Part shown: positions 2,277 through 61,189 of the stretch, one piece after another
How positions within the stretch are numbered: position 1 is the stretch's first letter
How the letters are laid out: each line of letters starts with the position of its first letter
From: Escherichia coli
Lineage (GTDB): Bacteria; Pseudomonadota; Gammaproteobacteria; Enterobacterales; Enterobacteriaceae
Assembly (NCBI RefSeq): GCF_009931435.1
Contig: NZ_CP043414.1
Direction: 5' to 3' (one strand)
DNA: 64,000 bases
Notes under the pieces: generated by a model
Seen by the model: only the letters and a program-made list of their open reading frames with translations
The model's database searches: none
Told to the model about the DNA's origin: nothing
Made by a program: the position numbers and the translations under genes

Positions 2277-2445
2277 CAAAGAAAAAGGCAGCCTGTGGTT
2301 GCCTTTTGCCAATAATTCGCACACATTGCGGGTTACTGCTTTATTTTCGTTCAGTGCTGATAACGAACATCAACCTGCAAAACGAAGCGCATAGTTTAAA
2401 ATGGCTATCATCAATACGCTATATCTGATGGAAAAAAATATGCCT
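2277..2445 (-). ncRNA. sraB: possible SraB small RNA in the yceD leader region; approximate coordinates
   Basis: From memory, SraB maps between yceF and yceD, co-oriented with yceD. No boundary can be read from sequence alone. Confidence 0.25.
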
Positions 2446-3024
2446 AAACTTATTTTAGCCTCCACCTCGCCCTGGCGTCGCGCTCTTCTGGAAAAACTGC
2501 AAATCTCTTTTGAATGTGCAGAACCCGAGGTCGACGAAACCCCACGCAGCGACGAATCACCGCGACAGTTGGTGCTTCGACTGGCACAAGAAAAAGCGCA
2601 ATCTCTGGCGTCACGTTATCCGGATCATTTAATTATTGGTTCAGACCAGGTATGTGTTCTTGATGGCGAAATCACCGGTAAACCGTTAACGGAAGAAAAT
2701 GCCCGTCTGCAATTACGCAAAGCCAGCGGCAATATCGTCACCTTCTATACTGGACTGGCGTTGTTTAATTCGGCGAATGGGCATCTGCAAACAGAAGTGG
2801 AGCCTTTTGACGTCCATTTCCGTCACCTGAGCGAGGCGGAGATTGATAATTACGTGCGTAAGGAGCATCCCCTGCACTGCGCGGGTAGCTTTAAGAGTGA
2901 AGGATTTGGCATTACGCTGTTTGAGCGTTTAGAAGGGCGTGACCATAACACGCTGGTTGGTTTACCGCTAATCGCGCTGTGTCAGATGTTACGTCGGGAA
3001 GGGAAAAATCCGCTGATGGGATAG
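2440..3024 (+). CDS. yceF: Maf-like nucleotide pyrophosphatase YceF
   Basis: Track ORF 2401-3024 trimmed to internal ATG at 2440 ([21 protein letters not shown]...), giving 194 aa. Confidence 0.9.
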
Positions 3025-3032
3025 TTTTTTAC

Positions 3033-3104
3033 GCCGGATGCAGGTATGTCGCATCCGGCAATCGGTGCTGGCGGCCTGATGCGGCGTAAACGCCTTATCA
3101 GGCC
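3033..3104. repeat. REP/BIME palindromic unit pair
   Basis: gccggatgcaggtatgtcgcatccggc followed by gcctgatgcggcgtaaacgccttatcaggcc between convergent yceF and rluC. Confidence 0.8.
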
Positions 3105-4306: not shown

Positions 4307-4667
4307 GTTTCCGTGTCCATCCTTGTTAAAACAAGAAATTTTACGGAATAACCCATTTTGCCCGACCGATCATCCACGCAGCAATGGCGTAAGACGTATT
4401 GATCTTTCAGGCAGTTAGCGGGCTGCGGGTTGCAGTCCTTACCGGTAGATGGAAATATTTCTGGAGAGTAATACCCAGTCTGTTTCTTTGATAATTGCGC
4501 TGTTTTTCCGCATGAAAAACGGGCAACCGACACTCTGCGCCTCTTTGAGCTGACGATAACCGTGAGGTTGGCGACGCGACTAGACACGAGGCCATCGGTT
4601 CACACCCGGAAAGGCGTTACTTTGCCCGCAGCTTAGTCGTCAATGTAAGAATAATGAGTAAGTTACG
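4307..4667 (+). promoter_or_regulatory. long rne 5' leader (autoregulatory UTR) and promoter region
   Basis: About 570 bp of non-coding sequence precedes the rne ATG; rne is known to have a ~361-nt structured leader. Boundaries estimated, not read from sequence. Confidence 0.5.
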
Positions 4668-7600
4668 ATGAAAAGAATGTTAATCAACGCAACTCAGCAG
4701 GAAGAGTTGCGCGTTGCCCTTGTAGATGGGCAGCGTCTGTATGACCTGGATATCGAAAGTCCAGGGCACGAACAGAAAAAGGCAAACATCTACAAAGGTA
4801 AAATCACCCGCATTGAACCGAGTCTGGAAGCTGCTTTTGTTGATTACGGCGCTGAACGTCACGGTTTCCTCCCACTAAAAGAAATTGCCCGCGAATATTT
4901 CCCTGCTAACTACAGTGCTCATGGTCGTCCCAACATTAAAGATGTGTTGCGTGAAGGTCAGGAAGTCATTGTTCAGATCGATAAAGAAGAGCGCGGCAAC
5001 AAAGGCGCGGCATTAACCACCTTTATCAGTCTGGCGGGTAGCTATCTGGTTCTGATGCCGAACAACCCGCGCGCGGGTGGTATTTCTCGCCGTATTGAAG
5101 GCGACGACCGTACCGAATTAAAAGAAGCACTGGCAAGCCTTGAACTGCCGGAAGGCATGGGGCTTATCGTGCGCACCGCTGGCGTCGGCAAATCTGCAGA
5201 GGCGCTGCAATGGGATTTAAGCTTCCGTCTGAAACACTGGGAAGCCATCAAAAAAGCCGCTGAAAGCCGCCCTGCTCCATTCCTGATTCATCAGGAGAGC
5301 AACGTCATCGTTCGCGCATTCCGCGATTACTTACGTCAGGACATCGGCGAAATCCTTATCGATAACCCGAAAGTGCTCGAACTGGCGCGTCAGCATATCG
5401 CTGCATTAGGTCGCCCGGATTTCAGCAGCAAAATCAAGCTGTACACTGGTGAAATTCCGCTGTTCAGCCACTACCAGATCGAGTCGCAGATCGAGTCCGC
5501 CTTCCAGCGTGAAGTTCGTCTGCCATCCGGTGGTTCCATTGTTATCGACAGCACCGAAGCGTTAACAGCCATCGACATCAACTCCGCACGCGCGACCCGC
5601 GGCGGCGATATCGAAGAAACCGCGTTTAACACCAACCTCGAAGCTGCCGATGAGATTGCTCGTCAGCTGCGCCTGCGTGACCTCGGCGGCCTGATTGTTA
5701 TCGACTTCATCGACATGACGCCAGTACGCCACCAGCGTGCGGTAGAAAACCGTCTGCGTGAAGCGGTGCGTCAGGACCGTGCACGTATTCAAATCAGCCA
5801 TATTTCTCGCTTTGGCCTGCTGGAAATGTCCCGTCAGCGCCTGAGCCCATCATTGGGTGAATCCAGCCATCACGTCTGCCCGCGCTGCTCCGGTACCGGC
5901 ACCGTGCGTGACAACGAATCCCTGTCGCTCTCTATTCTGCGTCTGATTGAAGAAGAAGCGCTGAAAGAGAACACTCAGGAAGTGCATGCCATTGTTCCTG
6001 TACCAATCGCTTCTTACCTGCTGAACGAAAAACGCTCTGCGGTAAATGCCATTGAAACTCGTCAGGACGGCGTGCGCTGTGTGATTGTGCCAAACGATCA
6101 GATGGAAACCCCGCACTACCATGTGCTGCGCGTGCGCAAAGGGGAAGAAACCCCAACCTTAAGCTACATGCTGCCGAAGCTGCATGAAGAAGCGATGGCG
6201 CTGCCGTCTGAAGAAGAGTTCGCTGAACGTAAGCGTCCGGAACAACCTGCGCTGGCAACGTTTGCCATGCCGGATGTGCCGCCAGCGCCAACCCCAGCTG
6301 AACCTGCCGCGCCTGTCGCAGCCCCAGCACCTAAAGCTGCATCAACAACACCAGCAACTCCTGCACAACCTGGGCTGTTGAGCCGCTTCTTCGGCGCACT
6401 GAAAGCGCTGTTCAGCGGTGGTGAAGAAACCAAACCGACCGAGCAACCGGCACCGAAAACTGAAACGAAACCGGAACGTCAACAGGACCGCCGTAAGCCA
6501 CGTCAGAACAACCGTCGTGACCGAAATGAACGCCGCGACACACGTAGCGAACGTAATGAAGGCAGCGATAATCGCGAAGAAAACCGCCGTAATCGTCGCC
6601 AGGCACAGCAGCAGACTGCCGAGACGCGTGAGAGCCGTCAGCAGGCTGAGGTAACGGAAAAAGCGCGTACCACCGACGAGCAGCAAGCGCCGCGTCGTGA
6701 ACGTAGCCGCCGCCGTAATGATGATAAACGTCAGGCGCAACAAGAAGCGAAAGCGCTGAATGTTGAAGAGCAATCTGTTCAGGAAATCGAACAGGAAGAA
6801 CGTGTACGTCCGGTTCAGCCGCGTCGTAAACAGCGCCAGCTGAATCAGAAAGTGCGTTACGAGCAAAGCGTAGCCGAAGAAACGGTAGCCGCACCAGTGG
6901 TTGAAGAAACTGCCGCTGCCGAAACCATCGTTCAGGAAGTGCCTGCTCCGCGTACAGAACTGGCGAAAGTCCCGCTGCCAGTCGTAGCGCAAACTGCGCC
7001 GGAACAGCAGGAAGAGAACAATGCTGATAACCGTGATAACGGTGGCATGCCGCGTCGCTCTCGCCGCTCGCCTCGTCACCTGCGCGTAAGTGGTCAGCGT
7101 CGTCGTCGCTATCGTGACGAGCGTTATCCGACCCAGTCGCCAATGCCGTTAACCGTAGCGTGCGCGTCTCCGGAACTGGCCTCTGGCAAAGTCTGGATCC
7201 GCTATCCGATTGTACGTCCGCAAGATGTACAGGTTGAAGAGCAGCGCGAACAGGAAGAAGTACAAGTGCAACCGATGGTGACTGAGGTCCCTGTCGCCGC
7301 CGCTGTCGAACCTGTTGTTAGCGCGCCGGTTGTTGAAGAAGTGGCTGAAGTCGTAGAAGCCCCCGTTCAGGTTGCCGAACCGCAACCGGAAGTGGTTGAA
7401 ACGACGCATCCTGAGGTGATTGCCGCCGCGGTAACTGAACAGCCGCAGGTGATTACCGAGTCTGATGTTGCCGTAGCCCAGGAAGTTGCAGAACACGCAG
7501 AACCGGTGGTTGAACCGCAGGAAGAGACGGCTGATATTGAAGAAGTTGCCGAAACTGCTGAGGTTGTGGTTGCTGAACCTGAAGTTGTTGCTCAACCTCC

Positions 7601-14349: not shown

Positions 14350-14393
<44 letters not shown>

Positions 14394-26372: not shown

Positions 26373-26423
26373 TTATCCTTTGTGTCCGGCAAAAACATCC
26401 CTTCAGCCGGAGCATAGAGATTA

Positions 26424-31146: not shown

Positions 31147-31170
31147 GCCGGATGACACGCATCCGGCAAT
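31147..31170. repeat. REP palindromic unit
   Basis: gccggatgacacgcatccggc between convergent yceI and yceA. Confidence 0.75.
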
Positions 31171-33382: not shown

Positions 33383-33410
33383 GCCGGATGCTTCAAAATG
33401 GCATCCGGCA
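33383..33410. repeat. REP palindromic unit
   Basis: gccggatgcttcaaaatggcatccggc downstream of lpxL. Confidence 0.75.
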
Positions 33411-35456: not shown

Positions 35457-35520
35457 TTGATACCTCTCCCGTAAAAAAATACCGGCATAACGCCGGTATT
35501 TTTATTGGCTCGTTGATTTT

Positions 35521-45082: not shown

Positions 45083-45837
45083 GTTGTCACCCTGGACCTG
45101 GTCGTACATTTAAGAAATTAAATCATTTCAACTTAGTTGTTAACGCAACCTGTATTTTGTTAACGCCGCGTTACGATGGAAAGTATGTCTGCGGAAATAT
45201 TTTTAATAACTCACCCGCGCGTTGTATTTTTCTTTTTTTGTTCATACCAAAGTATTAAAACCCACGTAAATACGCTGTTATCTACGCAAAAAAAATATTT
45301 TGTTTTCTTTTAAATTTCGGTTTTCCGCAATCAAAAATCACCAGACAGTCATTCTTCTTGCCCGTCGCTGATTGCTGCGATATGTCTTGCGCACAAGCCG
45401 TGACAAACCTCGTCTTTTTGCAGTAAAAAATTGTCCACGGAGGTGTGGAGAAAAAACAAGAACGTTTTACATGACGAAAGGACTACACCGAAATATTTTT
45501 TATATGCATTATTAGCAAGTTAGCACCATTTGTATGATTTTTTAAAATTGTGCAAGAAAAACCAAATGTACAACTTTTCTATCATTTCTAAACTTAATAA
45601 AACCTTAAGATTAACATTTTAATATAACAAGTTACATTTAGTTACATGTTTAACACTTGATTTAAGATTTGTAATGGCTAGATTGAAATCAGATGTAATC
45701 CATTAGTTTTATATTTTACCCATTTAGGGCTGATTTATTACTACACACAGCAGTGCAACATCTGTCAGTACTTCTGGTGCTTCTATTTTAGAGGCAGCTG
45801 TCAGGTGTGCGATCAATAAAAAAAGCGGGGTTTCATC
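45083..45837. promoter_or_regulatory. csgBAC / csgDEFG divergent control region
   Basis: 755-bp AT-rich divergent spacer; the csgD -10 candidate TAGATT at 45679-45684 places the start site about 148 nt upstream of the csgD ATG. Confidence 0.7.
45631..45656 (+). promoter_or_regulatory. OmpR-binding site of the csgD promoter
   Basis: gttacatttagttacatgtttaacac, tandem GTTACAT half-sites just upstream of the csgD -35 region. Confidence 0.6.
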
Positions 45838-46906: not shown

Positions 46907-47323
46907 ATGCGTGTCAAACATGCAGTAGTTCTACTCATGCTTATTTCGCCTTTAAGTTGGGCTGGAACCATGACTTTCCAGTTCCGTAATCCAAACTTTG
47001 GTGGTAACCCAAATAATGGCGCTTTTTTATTAAATAGCGCCCAGGCACAGAACTCGTATAAAGATCCGAGCTATAACGATGACTTTGGTATTGAAACGCC
47101 ATCAGCGTTAGATAACTTTACCCAGGCCATCCAGTCACAAATTTTAGGTGGGCTACTGTCGAATATTAATACCGGTAAACCGGGCCGCATGGTGACCAAC
47201 GATTATATTGTCGATATCGCTAACCGCGATGGTCAATTGCAGTTGAATGTGACGGATCGCAAAACCGGACAAACCTCGACCATCCAGGTTTCGGGTTTAC
47301 AAAATAACTCAACCGATTTTTAA
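46907..47323 (+). CDS. csgF: curli assembly protein CsgF
   Basis: 138-aa [47 protein letters not shown]... Confidence 0.95.
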
Positions 47324-47349
47324 GCCCCAGCTTCATAAGGAAAATAATC

Positions 47350-48183
47350 ATGCAGCGCTTATTTCTTTTGGTTGCCGTCATGTTACTGAGCGGATGCTTA
47401 ACCGCCCCGCCTAAAGAAGCCGCCAGACCGACATTAATGCCTCGTGCTCAGAGCTACAAAGATTTGACCCATCTGCCAGCGCCGACGGGTAAGATCTTTG
47501 TTTCGGTATACAACATTCAGGACGAAACCGGGCAATTTAAACCCTACCCGGCAAGTAACTTCTCCACTGCTGTTCCGCAAAGCGCCACGGCAATGCTGGT
47601 CACGGCATTGAAAGATTCTCGCTGGTTTATACCGCTGGAGCGCCAGGGCTTACAAAACCTGCTTAACGAGCGCAAGATTATTCGTGCAGCACAAGAAAAC
47701 GGCACGGTTGCCATTAATAACCGAATCCCGCTGCAATCTTTAACGGCGGCAAATATCATGGTTGAAGGTTCGATTATCGGTTATGAAAGCAACGTTAAAT
47801 CGGGCGGTGTTGGGGCAAGATATTTTGGGATCGGTGCCGACACGCAATACCAGCTCGATCAGATTGCCGTGAACCTGCGTGTCGTCAATGTGAGTACCGG
47901 TGAGATCCTCTCCTCGGTGAACACCAGTAAGACGATACTTTCCTATGAAGTTCAGGCGGGGGTCTTCCGCTTTATTGACTACCAGCGCTTGCTGGAAGGG
48001 GAAGTAGGTTACACCTCGAACGAACCCGTTATGCTGTGCCTGATGTCGGCTATCGAAACAGGCGTCATTTTCCTGATTAATGATGGTATCGACCGCGGTC
48101 TTTGGGATTTGCAGAACAAAGCAGAACGGCAGAATGACATTCTGGTGAAATACCGCCATATGTCGGTTCCACCGGAATCCTGA
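47350..48183 (+). CDS. csgG: curli secretion channel lipoprotein CsgG
   Basis: 277-aa ORF MQRLFLLVAVMLLSGCLTAPPKEAARPTLMPRAQSYKDL... (lipobox LSGC). Confidence 0.96.
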   Translation: MQRLFLLVAVMLLSGCLTAPPKEAARPTLMPRAQSYKDLTHLPAPTGKIFVSVYNIQDETGQFKPYPASNFSTAVPQSATAMLVTALKDSRWFIPLERQGLQNLLNERKIIRAAQENGTVAINNRIPLQSLTAANIMVEGSIIGYESNVKSGGVGARYFGIGADTQYQLDQIAVNLRVVNVSTGEILSSVNTSKTILSYEVQAGVFRFIDYQRLLEGEVGYTSNEPVMLCLMSAIETGVIFLINDGIDRGLWDLQNKAERQNDILVKYRHMSVPPES

Positions 48184-48192
48184 TAGATAAAA

Positions 48193-48220
48193 ATGCCGGA
48201 ATTATCATCCGGCATTTTAC
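48193..48220 (+). terminator. intrinsic terminator after csgG
   Basis: atgccgga-attatca-tccggcat followed by tttac. Confidence 0.65.
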
Positions 48221-48233
48221 TGTTCAAGCGAAA

Positions 48234-48261
48234 GCGTGAGTGCCCCTCACGCTTTATTTTT
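48234..48261 (+). terminator. second hairpin/T-tract terminator; overlaps the ycdZ stop codon
   Basis: gcgtgag-tgccc-ctcacgc followed by tttatttttg. Confidence 0.55.
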
Positions 48262-48738
48262 GATTTGCTGCTCACGGTGAGCCGTCTTTGCACTACGCGC
48301 CGCCAGCCACAAGCCGCTGTTTTTCATTGCGTAACCAAATACCAGTCCAAGCGCCAGCGAAGGTAACACCAGTTTCCAGTCACCCTGCCCGGCAAACGTC
48401 GCGCATGCGCCTATAAACGTCCCCGGAACAAATGAAAGCAGCAGCTGTTTCGCCTGAATACACATCAGAAACGCGACAATACCGGTTATGACATAACCGA
48501 GAATTTCCAGATGTGGTGCCAGTGCACTACCGTAAATAATGACCATCGCCCACACCACGCCACTAAGCAGGGTTGCAGCGGAGATCGCCAGCCCTTTCAG
48601 CCCACCTTGCGGGCAGGCAAAGTAGGCCGTACAGCCCAGGAAGCCCGCCCAGCTTAGTAAGCCCAGGGAAACAGCCACCCATCCCCAGATACCGGAGAGA
48701 ATGCCTGTTGTGATTGCAATAGAGAGAAGTATGTTCAT
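48247..48738 (-). CDS. ycdZ: inner-membrane protein YcdZ (DUF1097)
   Basis: Track ORF trimmed to ATG at 48736-48738 (MNILLSIAITTGILSGIWGWVAVSLGLL...), 163 aa. Confidence 0.88.
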   Translation of the reverse strand: MNILLSIAITTGILSGIWGWVAVSLGLLSWAGFLGCTAYFACPQGGLKGLAISAATLLSGVVWAMVIIYGSALAPHLEILGYVITGIVAFLMCIQAKQLLLSFVPGTFIGACATFAGQGDWKLVLPSLALGLVFGYAMKNSGLWLAARSAKTAHREQQIKNKA

Positions 48739-48839
48739 GCCGCGCATGATAGCAGAAAACGCGGCCATGAATGAGATCGAGCACACATTTTATGCAACAA
48801 CAAATTATCTGTTGCAGTTATGAGTGATGGAGATCACAT

Positions 48840-49394
48840 TTACTCTTCAGAATCTTCTTCCAGCTCGTCCCACATTGCACTAATAGCATCGCGGGTTAGC
48901 GGTGCCATGGTGCGCCAGAAAGGCGTAGTTGCATGGGCCTCCACTTTGCCAAGGAACGCACCACACCAGGGTAACAGATACTCACTGAACAGTGTTTCCA
49001 GTGCTTCGCTCTCATCTTCCGTTGACTGATCTTCCAGCCAGGAAGCCGCGAGCAGCAATGTACCGATGTGATCGGCTGGCGTATCCGCTAATGGCATCCC
49101 TCGTTCGGAAAGAAAAGCGCGCACTTCCGCTTCCGTCGCGCCCTCAACCCATGCGCTACGATATGGCGGCACAGCACATTCATCGCCGATAAACAACGCA
49201 TTGTATTCGGCAGAGACTTGCGCCATATCACAGCTTTTCTGTAAACGTGTCAGTAACTCATCCTGCTCCAGTGGCCAGTTCGCAGCCAGTTTCCCCTCAC
49301 GAATCAGGGTAAACAGCGGCACCAGTAAAGGATCTTGCGGTTGGCGGTAATAGAGCGAACCCAGCACACGACAGAGGATAGAAAACTCGTTCAT
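48840..49394 (-). CDS. ycdY: TorD-family redox enzyme maturation chaperone YcdY
   Basis: 184-aa ORF MNEFSILCRVLGSLYYRQPQDPLLVPLFTLIREGKLAANWPLEQ... Confidence 0.92.
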   Translation of the reverse strand: MNEFSILCRVLGSLYYRQPQDPLLVPLFTLIREGKLAANWPLEQDELLTRLQKSCDMAQVSAEYNALFIGDECAVPPYRSAWVEGATEAEVRAFLSERGMPLADTPADHIGTLLLAASWLEDQSTEDESEALETLFSEYLLPWCGAFLGKVEAHATTPFWRTMAPLTRDAISAMWDELEEDSEE

Positions 49395-49417
49395 TAATAT
49401 ATTTCCATTACTAGTAA

Positions 49418-50155
49418 TTAAAGGTCTGCAAATTCCGCAATCGGTGCCATACCACGAGATTCAAGGAAGTTCAGTAAGCGGCGCGGAGAAACATTCAAAA
49501 TGCGCTCTGGCGGAAAATCTACCGCGTCGAGGATTTTAAGACACTCTTCAAATTCACCCATGGTAAACGCGGTGTGAGAATCCGAGCCTAATGCCACCCA
49601 ACCTCCAGCGTCACGTACCGCTGCGGCTACCGCACGACAGTTGTCTTCACTGCCCTTACGTGAGTGTAAAAATGAGGAATTATTGATTTCCAGCGCCACC
49701 TGATGTTTCGCAGCTGCTTCAGCAACGGCTTTAACATCTATTTCATATTTCGGATTTCCGGGATGGCTTATTATATGCACATTGCCGCTGGCGATAGTGG
49801 CGATCATCGCTTGCGTATTGGTCGCTTTGTCATGCGGCGCAAACACCGGCTCATGAAAACCGGCAATAATCAGATCCAGCGAATCAAACATTTTGCCACT
49901 GCAGTCAATTTCACCGTCAACATTTTTAATGTTAGCTTCGATCCCGCGCAGGATCCCAACCCCATCAACCACTCGCGGCCAGATACGCATGTTAATGAAG
50001 TGCCAGTGATGCGGCGCATCTTCCATATCCGGGCCATGATCGGTGATCGCAAAAAGTTTAATGCCCTTTTGTTTGGCCTGGGCAATGTAATCACTCAATG
50101 TGCTATATGCATGCGTGCTAGCAACGGTATGCATATGAAGGTCGACGGGATACAT
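49418..50155 (-). CDS. ycdX: PHP-domain zinc phosphatase YcdX
   Basis: 245-aa [56 protein letters not shown]... Confidence 0.93.
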
Positions 50156-51381: not shown

Positions 51382-51469
51382 GGTGAGGTGTCCGAGTGGC
51401 TGAAGGAGCACGCCTGGAAAGTGTGTATACGGCAACGTATCGGGGGTTCGAATCCCCCCCTCACCGCCA
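51382..51469 (+). tRNA. serX: tRNA-Ser (anticodon GGA), CCA encoded
   Basis: ggtgaggtgtccgagtggctgaaggagcacgcctggaaagtgtgtatacggcaacgtatcgggggttcgaatccccccctcaccgcca; long variable arm, T-loop GGTTCGAATCC, anticodon GGA. Confidence 0.93.
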
Positions 51470-51931
51470 TCTTTAAAGAAGAGCTCGTACGAAAGTACGG
51501 GCTTTTTTTTCGTATATTGCACACACCGGGGGGATGAGAAGCCCCGACAGGGGTTCGACAACTGGCGACAGCCAGTTGGACAGACCGTGAACGCAGTGAG
51601 CGGGCTGCCCGCAGGGCGAGCGAAGCGAGTCAATCCCCCCCTCACCGCCATCTTTAAAGAAGAGCTCGTACGAAAGTACGGGCTTTTTTTTTGTATATTG
51701 CACACACCGGGGGGATGAGAAGCCCCGACAGGGGTTCGACAACTGGCGACAGCCAGTTGGACAGACCGTGAACGCAGTGAGCGGGCTGCCCGCAGGGCGA
51801 GCGAAGCGAGTCAATCCCCCCCTCACCGCCATCTTTAAAGAAGAGCTCGTACGAAGGTACGGGCTTTTTTTTCGTATATTGCACACACCGGGGGATGAAA
51901 AGCCCCGACCGGGGTTCGACAACTGGCGACA
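51470..51931 (+). repeat. tRNA-linked tandem direct repeat array: about 2.5 copies of a 181-bp unit, each ending with the 3'-terminal 19 nt of serX
   Basis: Copies at 51470-51650, 51651-51831 and a truncated copy at 51832-51931. Copies 1 and 2 differ by one C/T; copy 3 has about four substitutions or indels. The tRNA 3'-end motif aatccccccctcaccgcca recurs at 51451-51469, 51632-51650 and 51813-51831. Confidence 0.9.
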
Positions 51932-60124: not shown

Positions 60125-61189
60125 TTAACTGTATGCATGTAGCGTACGTTGGCAAAGTGCCGAACGTACGCAATCCTCTTTACCGAATCGGACGATCCCG
60201 ACCATTTCATCTTCTTCGAAACGTTCCAGCGCGTCACTTAATCCGGAGCGCACGCCGCGAGGCAAATCGCATTGCGTGATATCACCGTTGACGATAACCG
60301 TCACGTTCTCCCCGAGGCGGGTTAAAAACATTTTCATTTGCGCGGCAGTCACATTCTGCGCCTCGTCAAGAATGACGACTGCATTTTCAAAGGTACGTCC
60401 ACGCATATAGGCGAACGGCGCGATTTCCACCTTCCCTATTTCCGGTCGCAGGCAGTACTGCATAAAGGAAGCCCCTAAGCGCCGGACCAGCACGTCGTAG
60501 ACCGGACGAAAATAGGGAGCAAACTTTTCTGCGATATCTCCAGGTAAGAAGCCAAGATCTTCATCGGCTTGCAGAACTGGACGGGTGACGATAATCCTGT
60601 CGACATCCTTATGTATCAGGGCCTCTGCCGCTTTTGCTGCGCTGATCCAGGTTTTTCCGCACCCGGCTTCGCCGGTGGCGAATATCAGCTGCTTACTCTC
60701 AATAGCCTTCAGATAGTGCAATTGCGCTTCATTTCGCGCGAGGATGGGCGAGGTATCGCGACTGTCGCGGGCCATACCAATGGCTTCTACGCCGCTCATC
60801 TGCACAAGCGAGGTGACCGATTCTTCTTCACGCTGCTTATGGCTGCGCGAATCCCGTCTCAGCACACGTTTTGCCTCGCGACGAGCTTTGATCACTGCTT
60901 TTTGTCTTCCCATGGAGAGCACCTTGAGTTGTTTGTATTCATCACACGCGCCGTTGGCAGCGCGATTATGCGCACGAACATCAGAGGGTTGGCTTCCTTG
61001 TAAGCCATAGTTTGCTTTTGGATAAAATGCCGAAAAACGGCTACGCGCACCGTTTACGGCGTCGGTAACACATGAAAAGAAAGGTTGAGGTTGAAAATGC
61101 AAAGTGACGAGATGACTACCGGAGGAGAAATCTCCGCGAGTGGTGGAGCGTTGCTTAACAAAACATTGTCCAGTACAGGACGTTACCAT
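60125..61189 (-). CDS. phoH: phosphate starvation-inducible ATPase PhoH
   Basis: 354-aa ORF MVTSCTGQCFVKQRSTTRGDFSSGSHLVTLHFQ...; Walker A GEAGCGKT in the C-terminal domain. Confidence 0.93.
   Translation of the reverse strand: MVTSCTGQCFVKQRSTTRGDFSSGSHLVTLHFQPQPFFSCVTDAVNGARSRFSAFYPKANYGLQGSQPSDVRAHNRAANGACDEYKQLKVLSMGRQKAVIKARREAKRVLRRDSRSHKQREEESVTSLVQMSGVEAIGMARDSRDTSPILARNEAQLHYLKAIESKQLIFATGEAGCGKTWISAAKAAEALIHKDVDRIIVTRPVLQADEDLGFLPGDIAEKFAPYFRPVYDVLVRRLGASFMQYCLRPEIGKVEIAPFAYMRGRTFENAVVILDEAQNVTAAQMKMFLTRLGENVTVIVNGDITQCDLPRGVRSGLSDALERFEEDEMVGIVRFGKEDCVRSALCQRTLHAYS

Follow-up and report, generated by a model that had tools for sequence, protein, structure and literature searches.

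Two hairpins between the convergent genes csgG and ycdZ of Escherichia coli as a probable pair of crossed intrinsic terminators

Background

Canonical intrinsic terminators, of which lambda tR2 is an example, carry a G+C-rich stem-loop with a U-rich tract directly after it, just past a stop codon. Two stem-loops of this kind lie between csgG, the last gene of the curli operon csgDEFG, and the convergent gene ycdZ in the 64,000-nucleotide stretch of Escherichia coli DNA analyzed here (contig NZ_CP043414.1; “the window” hereafter), and each shows the canonical arrangement on one strand, hairpin 2 (the ycdZ-proximal one) on the plus strand and hairpin 1 (the csgG-proximal one) on the minus strand. 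They are unlike canonical terminators in that both also fold in the opposite transcript, where the tail is poor, and in that they are known here from sequence alone. We consider it probable that they are two crossed, mostly unidirectional intrinsic terminators, one per gene, with each gene using the distal hairpin, and the feature almost certainly functions in transcription termination or 3′-end formation.

Several other described systems come close to this arrangement. Bidirectional terminators, including the overlapping class reported from SEnd-seq (Ju et al. 2019, as far as that work is described in bioRxiv 10.1101/2022.10.23.513370), likewise involve convergent genes, a shared zone, and overlapping 3′ ends, which here are predicted ones, whereas Escherichia would use two separate crossed hairpins, with a predicted overlap of ~75 nt rather than one hairpin’s length. 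Tandem or clustered terminator hairpins (Gupta and Pal 2021, PMC8355165) also place two hairpins at most 80 nt from a stop codon, but the csgG/ycdZ U-tracts are on opposite strands, giving one terminator per strand rather than a co-directional cluster. Repetitive extragenic palindromes (REPs), described as terminators and stabilizers in 3′ untranslated regions (UTRs; bioRxiv 10.64898/2026.03.23.713779), share with hairpin 1 a GCCGGA/TCCGGC basal stem and a position between convergent genes; hairpin 1 differs in its smaller size (19-29 nt), its single copy, the A-run and T-run on its flanks, and the lack of a REP annotation in K-12. Finally, the stem-loops that protect Rho-terminated transcripts (Dar and Sorek) resemble hairpin 1 as a stable stem-loop upstream of a Rho-dependent region on the ycdZ strand, except that they are without U-rich tails and hairpin 1 has one on that strand. 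In the literature on the csgDEFG terminator, we found nothing specific.

Results and discussion

The csgG/ycdZ spacer measures 63 nt between both stop codons. It contains two perfect inverted repeats, located by an independent inverted-repeat search, with a gap of 12 nt between them and both within 80 nt of a stop codon. The features concerned are as follows.

48190-48218, minus strand (foldable in either transcript): hairpin 1, proposed ycdZ intrinsic terminator; perfect 11-bp inverted repeat with a 7-nt loop, ATTATCA
48181-48193, minus strand: U-rich tail of hairpin 1 in the ycdZ transcript (UUUUUAUCUAUCA, read from 48193 down to 48181; UUUUUAUCUAUC), from the sequence
48231-48255, plus strand: hairpin 2, proposed csgG (csgDEFG) intrinsic terminator; perfect 10-bp inverted repeat with a 5-nt loop, TGCCC
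48253-48266, plus strand: U-rich tail of hairpin 2 in the csgG transcript (UUUAUUUUUGAUUU; long run TTTATTTTTGATTT), from the sequence and a terminator scan match
47350-48183, plus strand: csgG coding sequence (curli secretion channel; last gene of csgDEFG), from the open reading frame (ORF) list and the annotation of E. coli 2013C-4282
48181-48183, plus strand: csgG stop codon TGA, from the ORF list and the sequence
48247-48738, minus strand: ycdZ coding sequence (DUF1097 inner-membrane protein; proposed name nupT), convergent with csgG, from the annotation of the identical genome
48247-48249, minus strand: ycdZ stop codon UGA (tca on the plus strand), from the sequence, the ORF list, and the annotation

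The arms of hairpin 1 are 48190-48200 (AAAATGCCGGA) and 48208-48218 (TCCGGCATTTT), with a G+C core TGCCGGA/TCCGGCA at 48194-48200 and 48208-48214; those of hairpin 2 are 48231-48240 (AAAGCGTGAG) and 48246-48255 (CTCACGCTTT), with a core GCGTGAG/CTCACGC, and the ycdZ stop codon occupies positions 7-9 of the hairpin 2 5′ arm in the ycdZ transcript (the 3′ arm on the plus strand). The original prediction had seen stem-loops at 48193-48220 and 48234-48261, which are the G+C cores plus T-runs of these same hairpins, had placed the ycdZ stop codon (48247-48249) within the second, and had described a compact termination zone for both convergent genes; all of this agrees with the present analysis, with two terminator-type stem-loops in 63 nt.

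As to the wider locus, positions 47900-48560 match E. coli 2013C-4282 at 100% identity and nearly every other complete E. coli genome at 95-99%. In the annotation of the identical genome, csgD, csgE, csgF, and csgG on the plus strand are followed by convergent ycdZ, ycdY, ycdX, and ghrA on the minus strand. Others have predicted a conserved CRP/CytR operator cassette ahead of ycdZ (PMC3454398), which would give ycdZ its own promoter.

Both hairpins are stable G+C-rich stem-loops, as expected of intrinsic terminators, and fold in either transcript. Folding energies were −15.5 kcal/mol (z −5.0) on the plus and −15.9 (z −5.4) on the minus strand for hairpin 1, and −14.4 (z −3.6) and −15.3 (z −4.6), respectively, for hairpin 2, and the whole spacer folded with z −5.3 (plus) and z −6.8 (minus), a stability that none of 200 shuffles equaled. 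The tails, in contrast, differ between strands. A U-tract of ~7-9 nt right after the stem is present for hairpin 2 on the plus strand (UUUAUUUUU) and for hairpin 1 on the minus strand (UUUUUAU), with the same tail weight of 5.04. On the plus strand, hairpin 1 is followed by a poor tail of four T (48215-48218; UUUUAC, UUUUACUGUU), which also pair with the upstream A-run, and then by ACTGTT; hairpin 2 on the minus strand has the poor tail UUUCGCUUG, its upstream A-run in Escherichia being only AAA. The earlier statement that each hairpin precedes a plus-strand T-run stands for the long run after hairpin 2 and is weak for hairpin 1. A terminator scan of the plus strand called hairpin 2 and did not call hairpin 1, in a region where terminator-like sites are no commoner than in shuffles.

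Every hairpin-plus-tail combination was then scored with a d’Aubenton-Carafa-type score and ViennaRNA energies, against a null of eight dinucleotide shuffles of the 64-kb strand, with the following results.

Hairpin 1, minus strand: tail UUUUUAUCUAUC, score 28.0
Hairpin 2, plus strand: tail UUUAUUUUUGAU, score 24.3
Hairpin 1, plus strand: tail UUUUACUGUUCA, score 12.7
Hairpin 2, minus strand: tail UUUCGCUUGAAC, score 9.2

Scores of at least 24 occurred at 17 sites in the window (both strands) as against 0.125 per 64-kb strand in shuffles, and 24.3 and 28.0 exceed all but one of the eight shuffled strands. Shuffled strands reach scores of 9-12 at 1.6-2.8 per strand, and both 12.7 and 9.2 are within the shuffle range. 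This asymmetry leaves one credible terminator per strand, in each case the hairpin farther from the stop codon of the gene concerned. Neither hairpin of the window has what a single-hairpin bidirectional terminator would have, an A-run and a T-run with scores on both strands (plus/minus, 24.3/9.2 for hairpin 2 and 12.7/28.0 for hairpin 1). Elsewhere in the window, four single hairpins do score on both strands, at 35479(−)/35499(+), 44092(−)/44109(+), 28357(−)/28375(+), and 2286(−)/2304(+); these are of the single-hairpin bidirectional type and differ from the two-hairpin csgG/ycdZ layout.

The same strand preferences recur throughout the genus. Among the csgG/ycdZ loci compared, hairpin 1 is restricted to Escherichia (E. 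coli, E. albertii, and related species), and its region was found in 5396 of 5426 complete E. coli genomes (5396-5401 across searches; >99%), at a median of one place per genome. All 12 Escherichia sequences examined give the csgG-stop-proximal hairpin a minus-strand score (12.3 to 34.8), with plus-strand scores below the listing cutoff of −10 in K-12, KL53, S7, L004, L006, and L012 and from −2.6 to 14 in the others; hairpin 2 scores 22.8 to 40.4 on the plus and 0.9 to 9.7 on the minus strand. In the alignment of these 12 sequences, the A-run that codes the minus-strand U-tract of hairpin 1 falls in invariant columns, as do the hairpin 2 tail columns TTTATTTTT, and the plus-strand T-run of hairpin 1 is variable (ATTTTAC, ATTTAC, CCTTTAC, TTTTC).

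Within E. coli, position 48194 is polymorphic, with T in the window, PU-1, and O157:H7, A in K-12 and KL53, and C in S7. Only T pairs with A48214 in both RNAs, lengthening hairpin 1 from the 6-bp core to 11 contiguous pairs and adding some plus-strand score; with C, pairing (G.U) is possible in the minus-strand RNA alone. With A at this position, the K-12 hairpin keeps a G+C core of 6 bp, continues on the ycdZ strand with six U, and scores 32.5. In the Escherichia sequence L006, one stem position is A.C in the plus-strand RNA, where the minus-strand RNA has G.U.

Distances to the stop codons point the same way. For lambda tR2, Li et al. measured almost complete repression with a stop codon 8-9 bp away and maximal activity beyond ~30 bp, because the terminating ribosome blocks folding of the hairpin (PMC4824070). 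Downstream of the csgG stop codon, the A-U extension of hairpin 1 starts after 6 nt and its core after 10-11 nt, and the core of hairpin 2 lies 50 nt away; on the ycdZ strand, the stop codon falls within hairpin 2 and the hairpin 1 core follows after 32 intervening nt. If these published distances apply here, the proximal hairpin of each gene would be ribosome-masked and the distal one free to fold, which fits the tail asymmetry and hence the crossed arrangement.

These observations bear directly on the claim of the original prediction that the two hairpins act in series as plus-strand csgG terminators, the zone being bidirectional only because hairpin 2 also stops ycdZ transcription. Some evidence is on its side, since hairpin 1 has an 11-bp stem, four U, and a score of 12.7 on the plus strand of the window, clusters of hairpins are reported to occur commonly past stop codons (PMC8355165), and the minimum-energy fold of the plus-strand RNA contains both hairpins. 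Yet the U-rich tail of hairpin 1 is the minus-strand one (UUUUUAUCUAUC vs UUUUACUGUU on the plus strand), its plus-strand tail is unconserved and leaves the score below the cutoff in K-12 and five other Escherichia, and it begins 6-11 nt past the csgG stop codon, in the range of repression by the terminating ribosome (PMC4824070). For its part, the hairpin 2 minus-strand tail scores at most 9.7 in every Escherichia sequence, and this hairpin holds the ycdZ stop codon. Given the minus-strand tail, the invariant A-run, and the proximity to the csgG stop codon, hairpin 1 is better read as a ycdZ terminator. We therefore regard the tandem arrangement as unlikely: it is possible for the window lineage, with its plus-strand score of 12.7, but unsupported across Escherichia.

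A scan for CsgG in one genome per species yielded 80 loci, 78 of them with convergent csgG and ycdZ. Outside Escherichia, the spacer is typically 30-50 nt and has one hairpin between an A-run and a T-run, with the ycdZ stop codon in the 3′ arm (tcaCGCTTT) or right after the T-run (TTTTTtta). This single hairpin, at the position of hairpin 2, scores at least 20 on both strands in 59 of 74 non-Escherichia loci, which makes it a classical bidirectional terminator there, and hairpin 2 is its Escherichia orthologue. Stem letters differ among genera (GCGTGAG, GCGTGGGG, GCGAGGC, GGCGAGA, GCGTGAC, CCAGC, CCGGC, and others) with pairing preserved. In an alignment of 47 orthologues, 97.2% of stem cells are paired, as against 80.8% in shuffles and 33-68% in slid controls, and 8 of the 10 stem pairs have changes on both sides, a covariation reached by none of 500 shuffles. 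Wobble pairs that form only in the plus-strand RNA outnumber those that form only in the minus-strand RNA by 12 to 1, an excess that fits the csgG-direction function of hairpin 2 being, as it appears, the constant one.

Under the arrangement that we favor, a csgG polymerase would first meet hairpin 1, partly ribosome-covered and with the poor U-run UUUUAC, and would then stop mainly at hairpin 2 with its long U-tract UUUAUUUUUGAUUU. Coming from the other side, a ycdZ polymerase would first meet hairpin 2, which includes the ycdZ stop codon and has the poor tail UUUCGCUUG, and would then stop mainly at hairpin 1, with its tail UUUUUAUCUAUC. Hairpin 2 would have descended from the single bidirectional terminator still present in most Enterobacteriaceae, and in Escherichia, where its A-run is short (AAA), the second hairpin would provide the ycdZ-direction signal. 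The csgG mRNA is thus predicted to end at ~48259-48262 (K-12 ~1100772-1100775, minus strand), inside the last ycdZ codons of the other strand, and the ycdZ mRNA at ~48186-48188 (K-12 ~1100846-1100848, plus strand), adjoining the csgG stop codon. If each transcript stops at its distal hairpin, these two predicted ends would define a further feature.

48186-48262, no strand assigned: predicted complementary zone of the csgG and ycdZ 3′ UTRs, ~75 nt

Another candidate mechanism is head-on collision, in which converging polymerases pause at the hairpins, collide, and are then released. This requires that both genes be active together; csgDEFG is active in curli-inducing stationary-phase conditions, and ycdZ is predicted to be under CRP/CytR control. 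Although the genes are convergent, their predicted 3′ ends overlap, and the mechanism has been described for such sites (e.g., ynaJ-uspE; bioRxiv 10.1101/2022.10.23.513370), the same source describes that class as unlike intrinsic terminators, which the csgG/ycdZ hairpins resemble. Collision as the principal mechanism seems to us very improbable.

The history of the spacer provides additional evidence on hairpin 1. In E. whittamii (L008 3345-3390) and Escherichia sp. E1V33 (L012 3345-3390), a 44-nt segment, CTGCACCTTAATCAGTTGGGTGTCCAACTTTTGGGGTGCAGTCC, stands in place of the hairpin 1 5′ arm and carries its own hairpin and T-run facing the minus strand, with a score of 23.3. Copies of the segment are carried by 645 of 5426 E. 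coli genomes, at 1-5 scattered places and also on some plasmids. In three contexts examined, the ATG of an IS3-family transposase follows it after 6 nt, a position that identifies it as an insertion-sequence (IS) leader or end, hairpin then U-run. The CATAAAAAA microhomology that it shares with the csgG 3′ flank suggests that deletion left the relic behind, and in these two species the role of terminator in the ycdZ direction appears to have passed to the hairpin of the relic.

Other insertions were seen at the same locus. In E. coli UTME-10 (L087 1885-3195), a complete IS3-family element, with ends TGAACCGCCCCGGG... and a 3-bp duplication AAG, sits between hairpins 1 and 2 at the equivalent of window 48233/48234 and moves the two terminators ~1.3 kb apart. 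Palindromes resembling REPs or bacterial interspersed mosaic elements (BIMEs) occupy the csgG/ycdZ spacer of Citrobacter koseri (L005 3335-3420), C. sedlakii (L007 3335-3381), and Phytobacter massiliensis (L050 3335-3473), with GCCCGATGGCGCAGACTTATCGGGCCTAC and CCGGATGCGGCGACACGCCTTATCCGGGCTAC as example letters. The C. koseri palindrome comes on top of an A-tract/hairpin/T-tract terminator; in the spacers of C. sedlakii and P. massiliensis, the hairpin-plus-tail scan scored no terminator-like hairpin. The csgG/ycdZ spacer is, in sum, a site of repeated small-element turnover.

Such turnover raises the question of whether hairpin 1 is itself a decayed REP-like palindrome or another insertion relic without selected function, with only hairpin 2 of any consequence. 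Its basal stem TGCCGGA...ATCCGGCA is common to REP-type hairpins of the same window, where GCCGGA-N(3-30)-TCCGGC occurs five times against 0.11 expected, one occurrence being the canonical REP at 14351, and the REP-like inserts of C. koseri, C. sedlakii, and P. massiliensis and the IS insertions of Escherichia show turnover in this spacer. Hairpin 1 is, however, single-copy, with no repeat feature annotated there in K-12, has a conserved A-run flank, is kept in >99% of E. coli genomes, and, where its 5′ arm was lost, was replaced by another hairpin with a minus-strand T-run. A functionless relic is accordingly very unlikely in our judgment, and a REP origin of hairpin 1 is plausible as history. 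Present membership of the REP/BIME family was considered and rejected, as hairpin 1 measures 19-29 nt against an imperfect consensus palindrome of ~35 nt repeated many times per genome, occurs at a median of one place per genome, has no K-12 repeat feature, and shares only the GCCGGA/TCCGGC stem. The other GCCGGA...TCCGGC hairpins of the window are at 3033-3059, 14351-14380 (the canonical REP), 31147-31167, and 33383-33409, all except the REP being shorter GCCGGATG...CATCCGGC stem-loops without U-tracts.

Several points weigh against assigning one crossed terminator to each gene. First, the score formula is a literature one calibrated by our own shuffles only, and hairpin 1 has a G+C core of just 6-7 bp with an interrupted run of five U. 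Second, since a palindrome can form in either transcript, its covariation does not tell the strands apart, and the strand assignment rests on the tails, one wobble case, and one replacement event. Third, in the window lineage (T at 48194), the plus-strand score of 12.7 means that hairpin 1 may add some csgG termination. Fourth, published maps gave no direct match: no 3′ end in the spacer appears in supplementary files 1 and 3 of Adams et al. 2021 (searched for ycdZ, csgG, and positions 11006xx-11009xx), in the TERMITe tables, or in the SMRT-Cappable-seq supplements. Fifth, a Rho termination region antisense to csgG is recorded for the ycdZ strand in supplementary file 2 of Adams et al. 2021 (K-12 1101050); its equivalent in the window is ~47984 (minus strand), ~200 nt beyond hairpin 1. 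Reads upstream/downstream were 183/14 untreated and 379/288 with bicyclomycin (Rho score 9.9, p 4e-24), and ycdZ-sense RNA is thus abundant well past both hairpins when Rho is blocked. Either hairpin 1 is leaky with Rho as a backstop or antisense transcripts unmasked by bicyclomycin start inside csgG, two cases that the 800-nt counting windows of that study cannot separate. In addition, the spacer has no entry in the terminator paper of PLoS Comput Biol 2022 (PMC9262186).

From these counts, intrinsic termination on the ycdZ strand may be incomplete, and they suggest that RNA antisense to csgG is kept in check by Rho. One could go further and suppose that termination in the ycdZ direction, perhaps in both, is mainly Rho-dependent and takes place further downstream, the hairpins being chiefly barriers to 3′-to-5′ exonucleases that define stable ends, a role described for stem-loops of Rho-dependent transcripts (PMC6061677). 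The Rho termination region ~200 nt past the spacer on the ycdZ strand, with its score of 9.9, speaks for this, and untranslated RNA antisense to csgG would be a natural Rho substrate, with a C/G ratio on the ycdZ strand of 1.3 at 48160-48043 (modest, near the spacer) and 2.7 at 47840-47763 (strong). On the other hand, the protective stem-loops of Dar and Sorek have no U-rich sequence after them, whereas here a conserved U-tract follows on one strand for each hairpin. The orthologous single hairpin of other genera, moreover, has full A- and T-tracts. The bicyclomycin signal could also stem from antisense promoters inside the csg locus, which is presumably silenced by H-NS. A mainly Rho-dependent mechanism is thus improbable in our view, and one intrinsic terminator per gene, crossed between the two, continues to be the better account.

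With that account, one hairpin is assigned to each gene instead of both to csgG, and the predicted 3′ ends are open to direct test. The locus would also offer an example of terminator turnover, in which most Enterobacteriaceae have a single bidirectional terminator, Escherichia has a crossed pair, and in two species an insertion-sequence leader hairpin takes over the role. With respect to curli biology, csgG may owe part of its insulation from convergent ycdZ transcription to Rho. More speculatively, if the Escherichia lineage split an ancestral bidirectional terminator into two crossed unidirectional ones, leaving mRNA 3′ ends complementary over ~75 nt, an RNase III-sensitive duplex or Rho-policed antisense readthrough could couple CRP/CytR-controlled ycdZ to the curli secretion genes; this coupling is a long shot. 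The arrangement itself is an ordinary instance of a well-known class and matters little beyond annotation.

Other identities and elements in the window

Alternative identities for the spacer sequences were examined and set aside. Rfam 15 gave no match at gathering score over 47000-49500, with AgrB and Thr leader as weak generic hairpin-plus-U matches. The best Rfam match, to the small RNA (sRNA) STnc400, reached 26.1 bits against a gathering score of 80, is of a generic two-hairpin kind, and has no match at the orthologous Salmonella locus. On the plus strand, 48180-48208 resembles a promoter at 9 of 12 positions; the region has 4 such matches against 6.3 in shuffles, and this one was treated as chance. 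Also on the plus strand, the 57-codon ORF antisense to ycdZ (48193-48366) is a mechanical ORF without support. Hairpin 1 as the palindromic operator of a dimeric regulator was likewise set aside, since it is situated where both genes end and no promoter is near.

Farther along the window, three near-identical strong terminator hairpins (GCTCGTACGAA[A/G]GTACGGGC) occur at 51503, 51684, and 51865 on the plus strand, ~181 nt apart and downstream of a tRNA gene at 51382-51466, in a region where the identical genome annotates RtT sRNA. Above their gathering scores, Rfam models matched ES056 sRNA at 45691-45782 (plus strand), just upstream of csgD and likewise present in the Citrobacter, Salmonella, and Enterobacter loci, as well as the rne 5′ UTR element at 4307-4643 (plus), SraB at 2278-2446 (minus), Ysr251 at 60130-60323 (plus), and the PyrC leader at 26374-26423 (plus).

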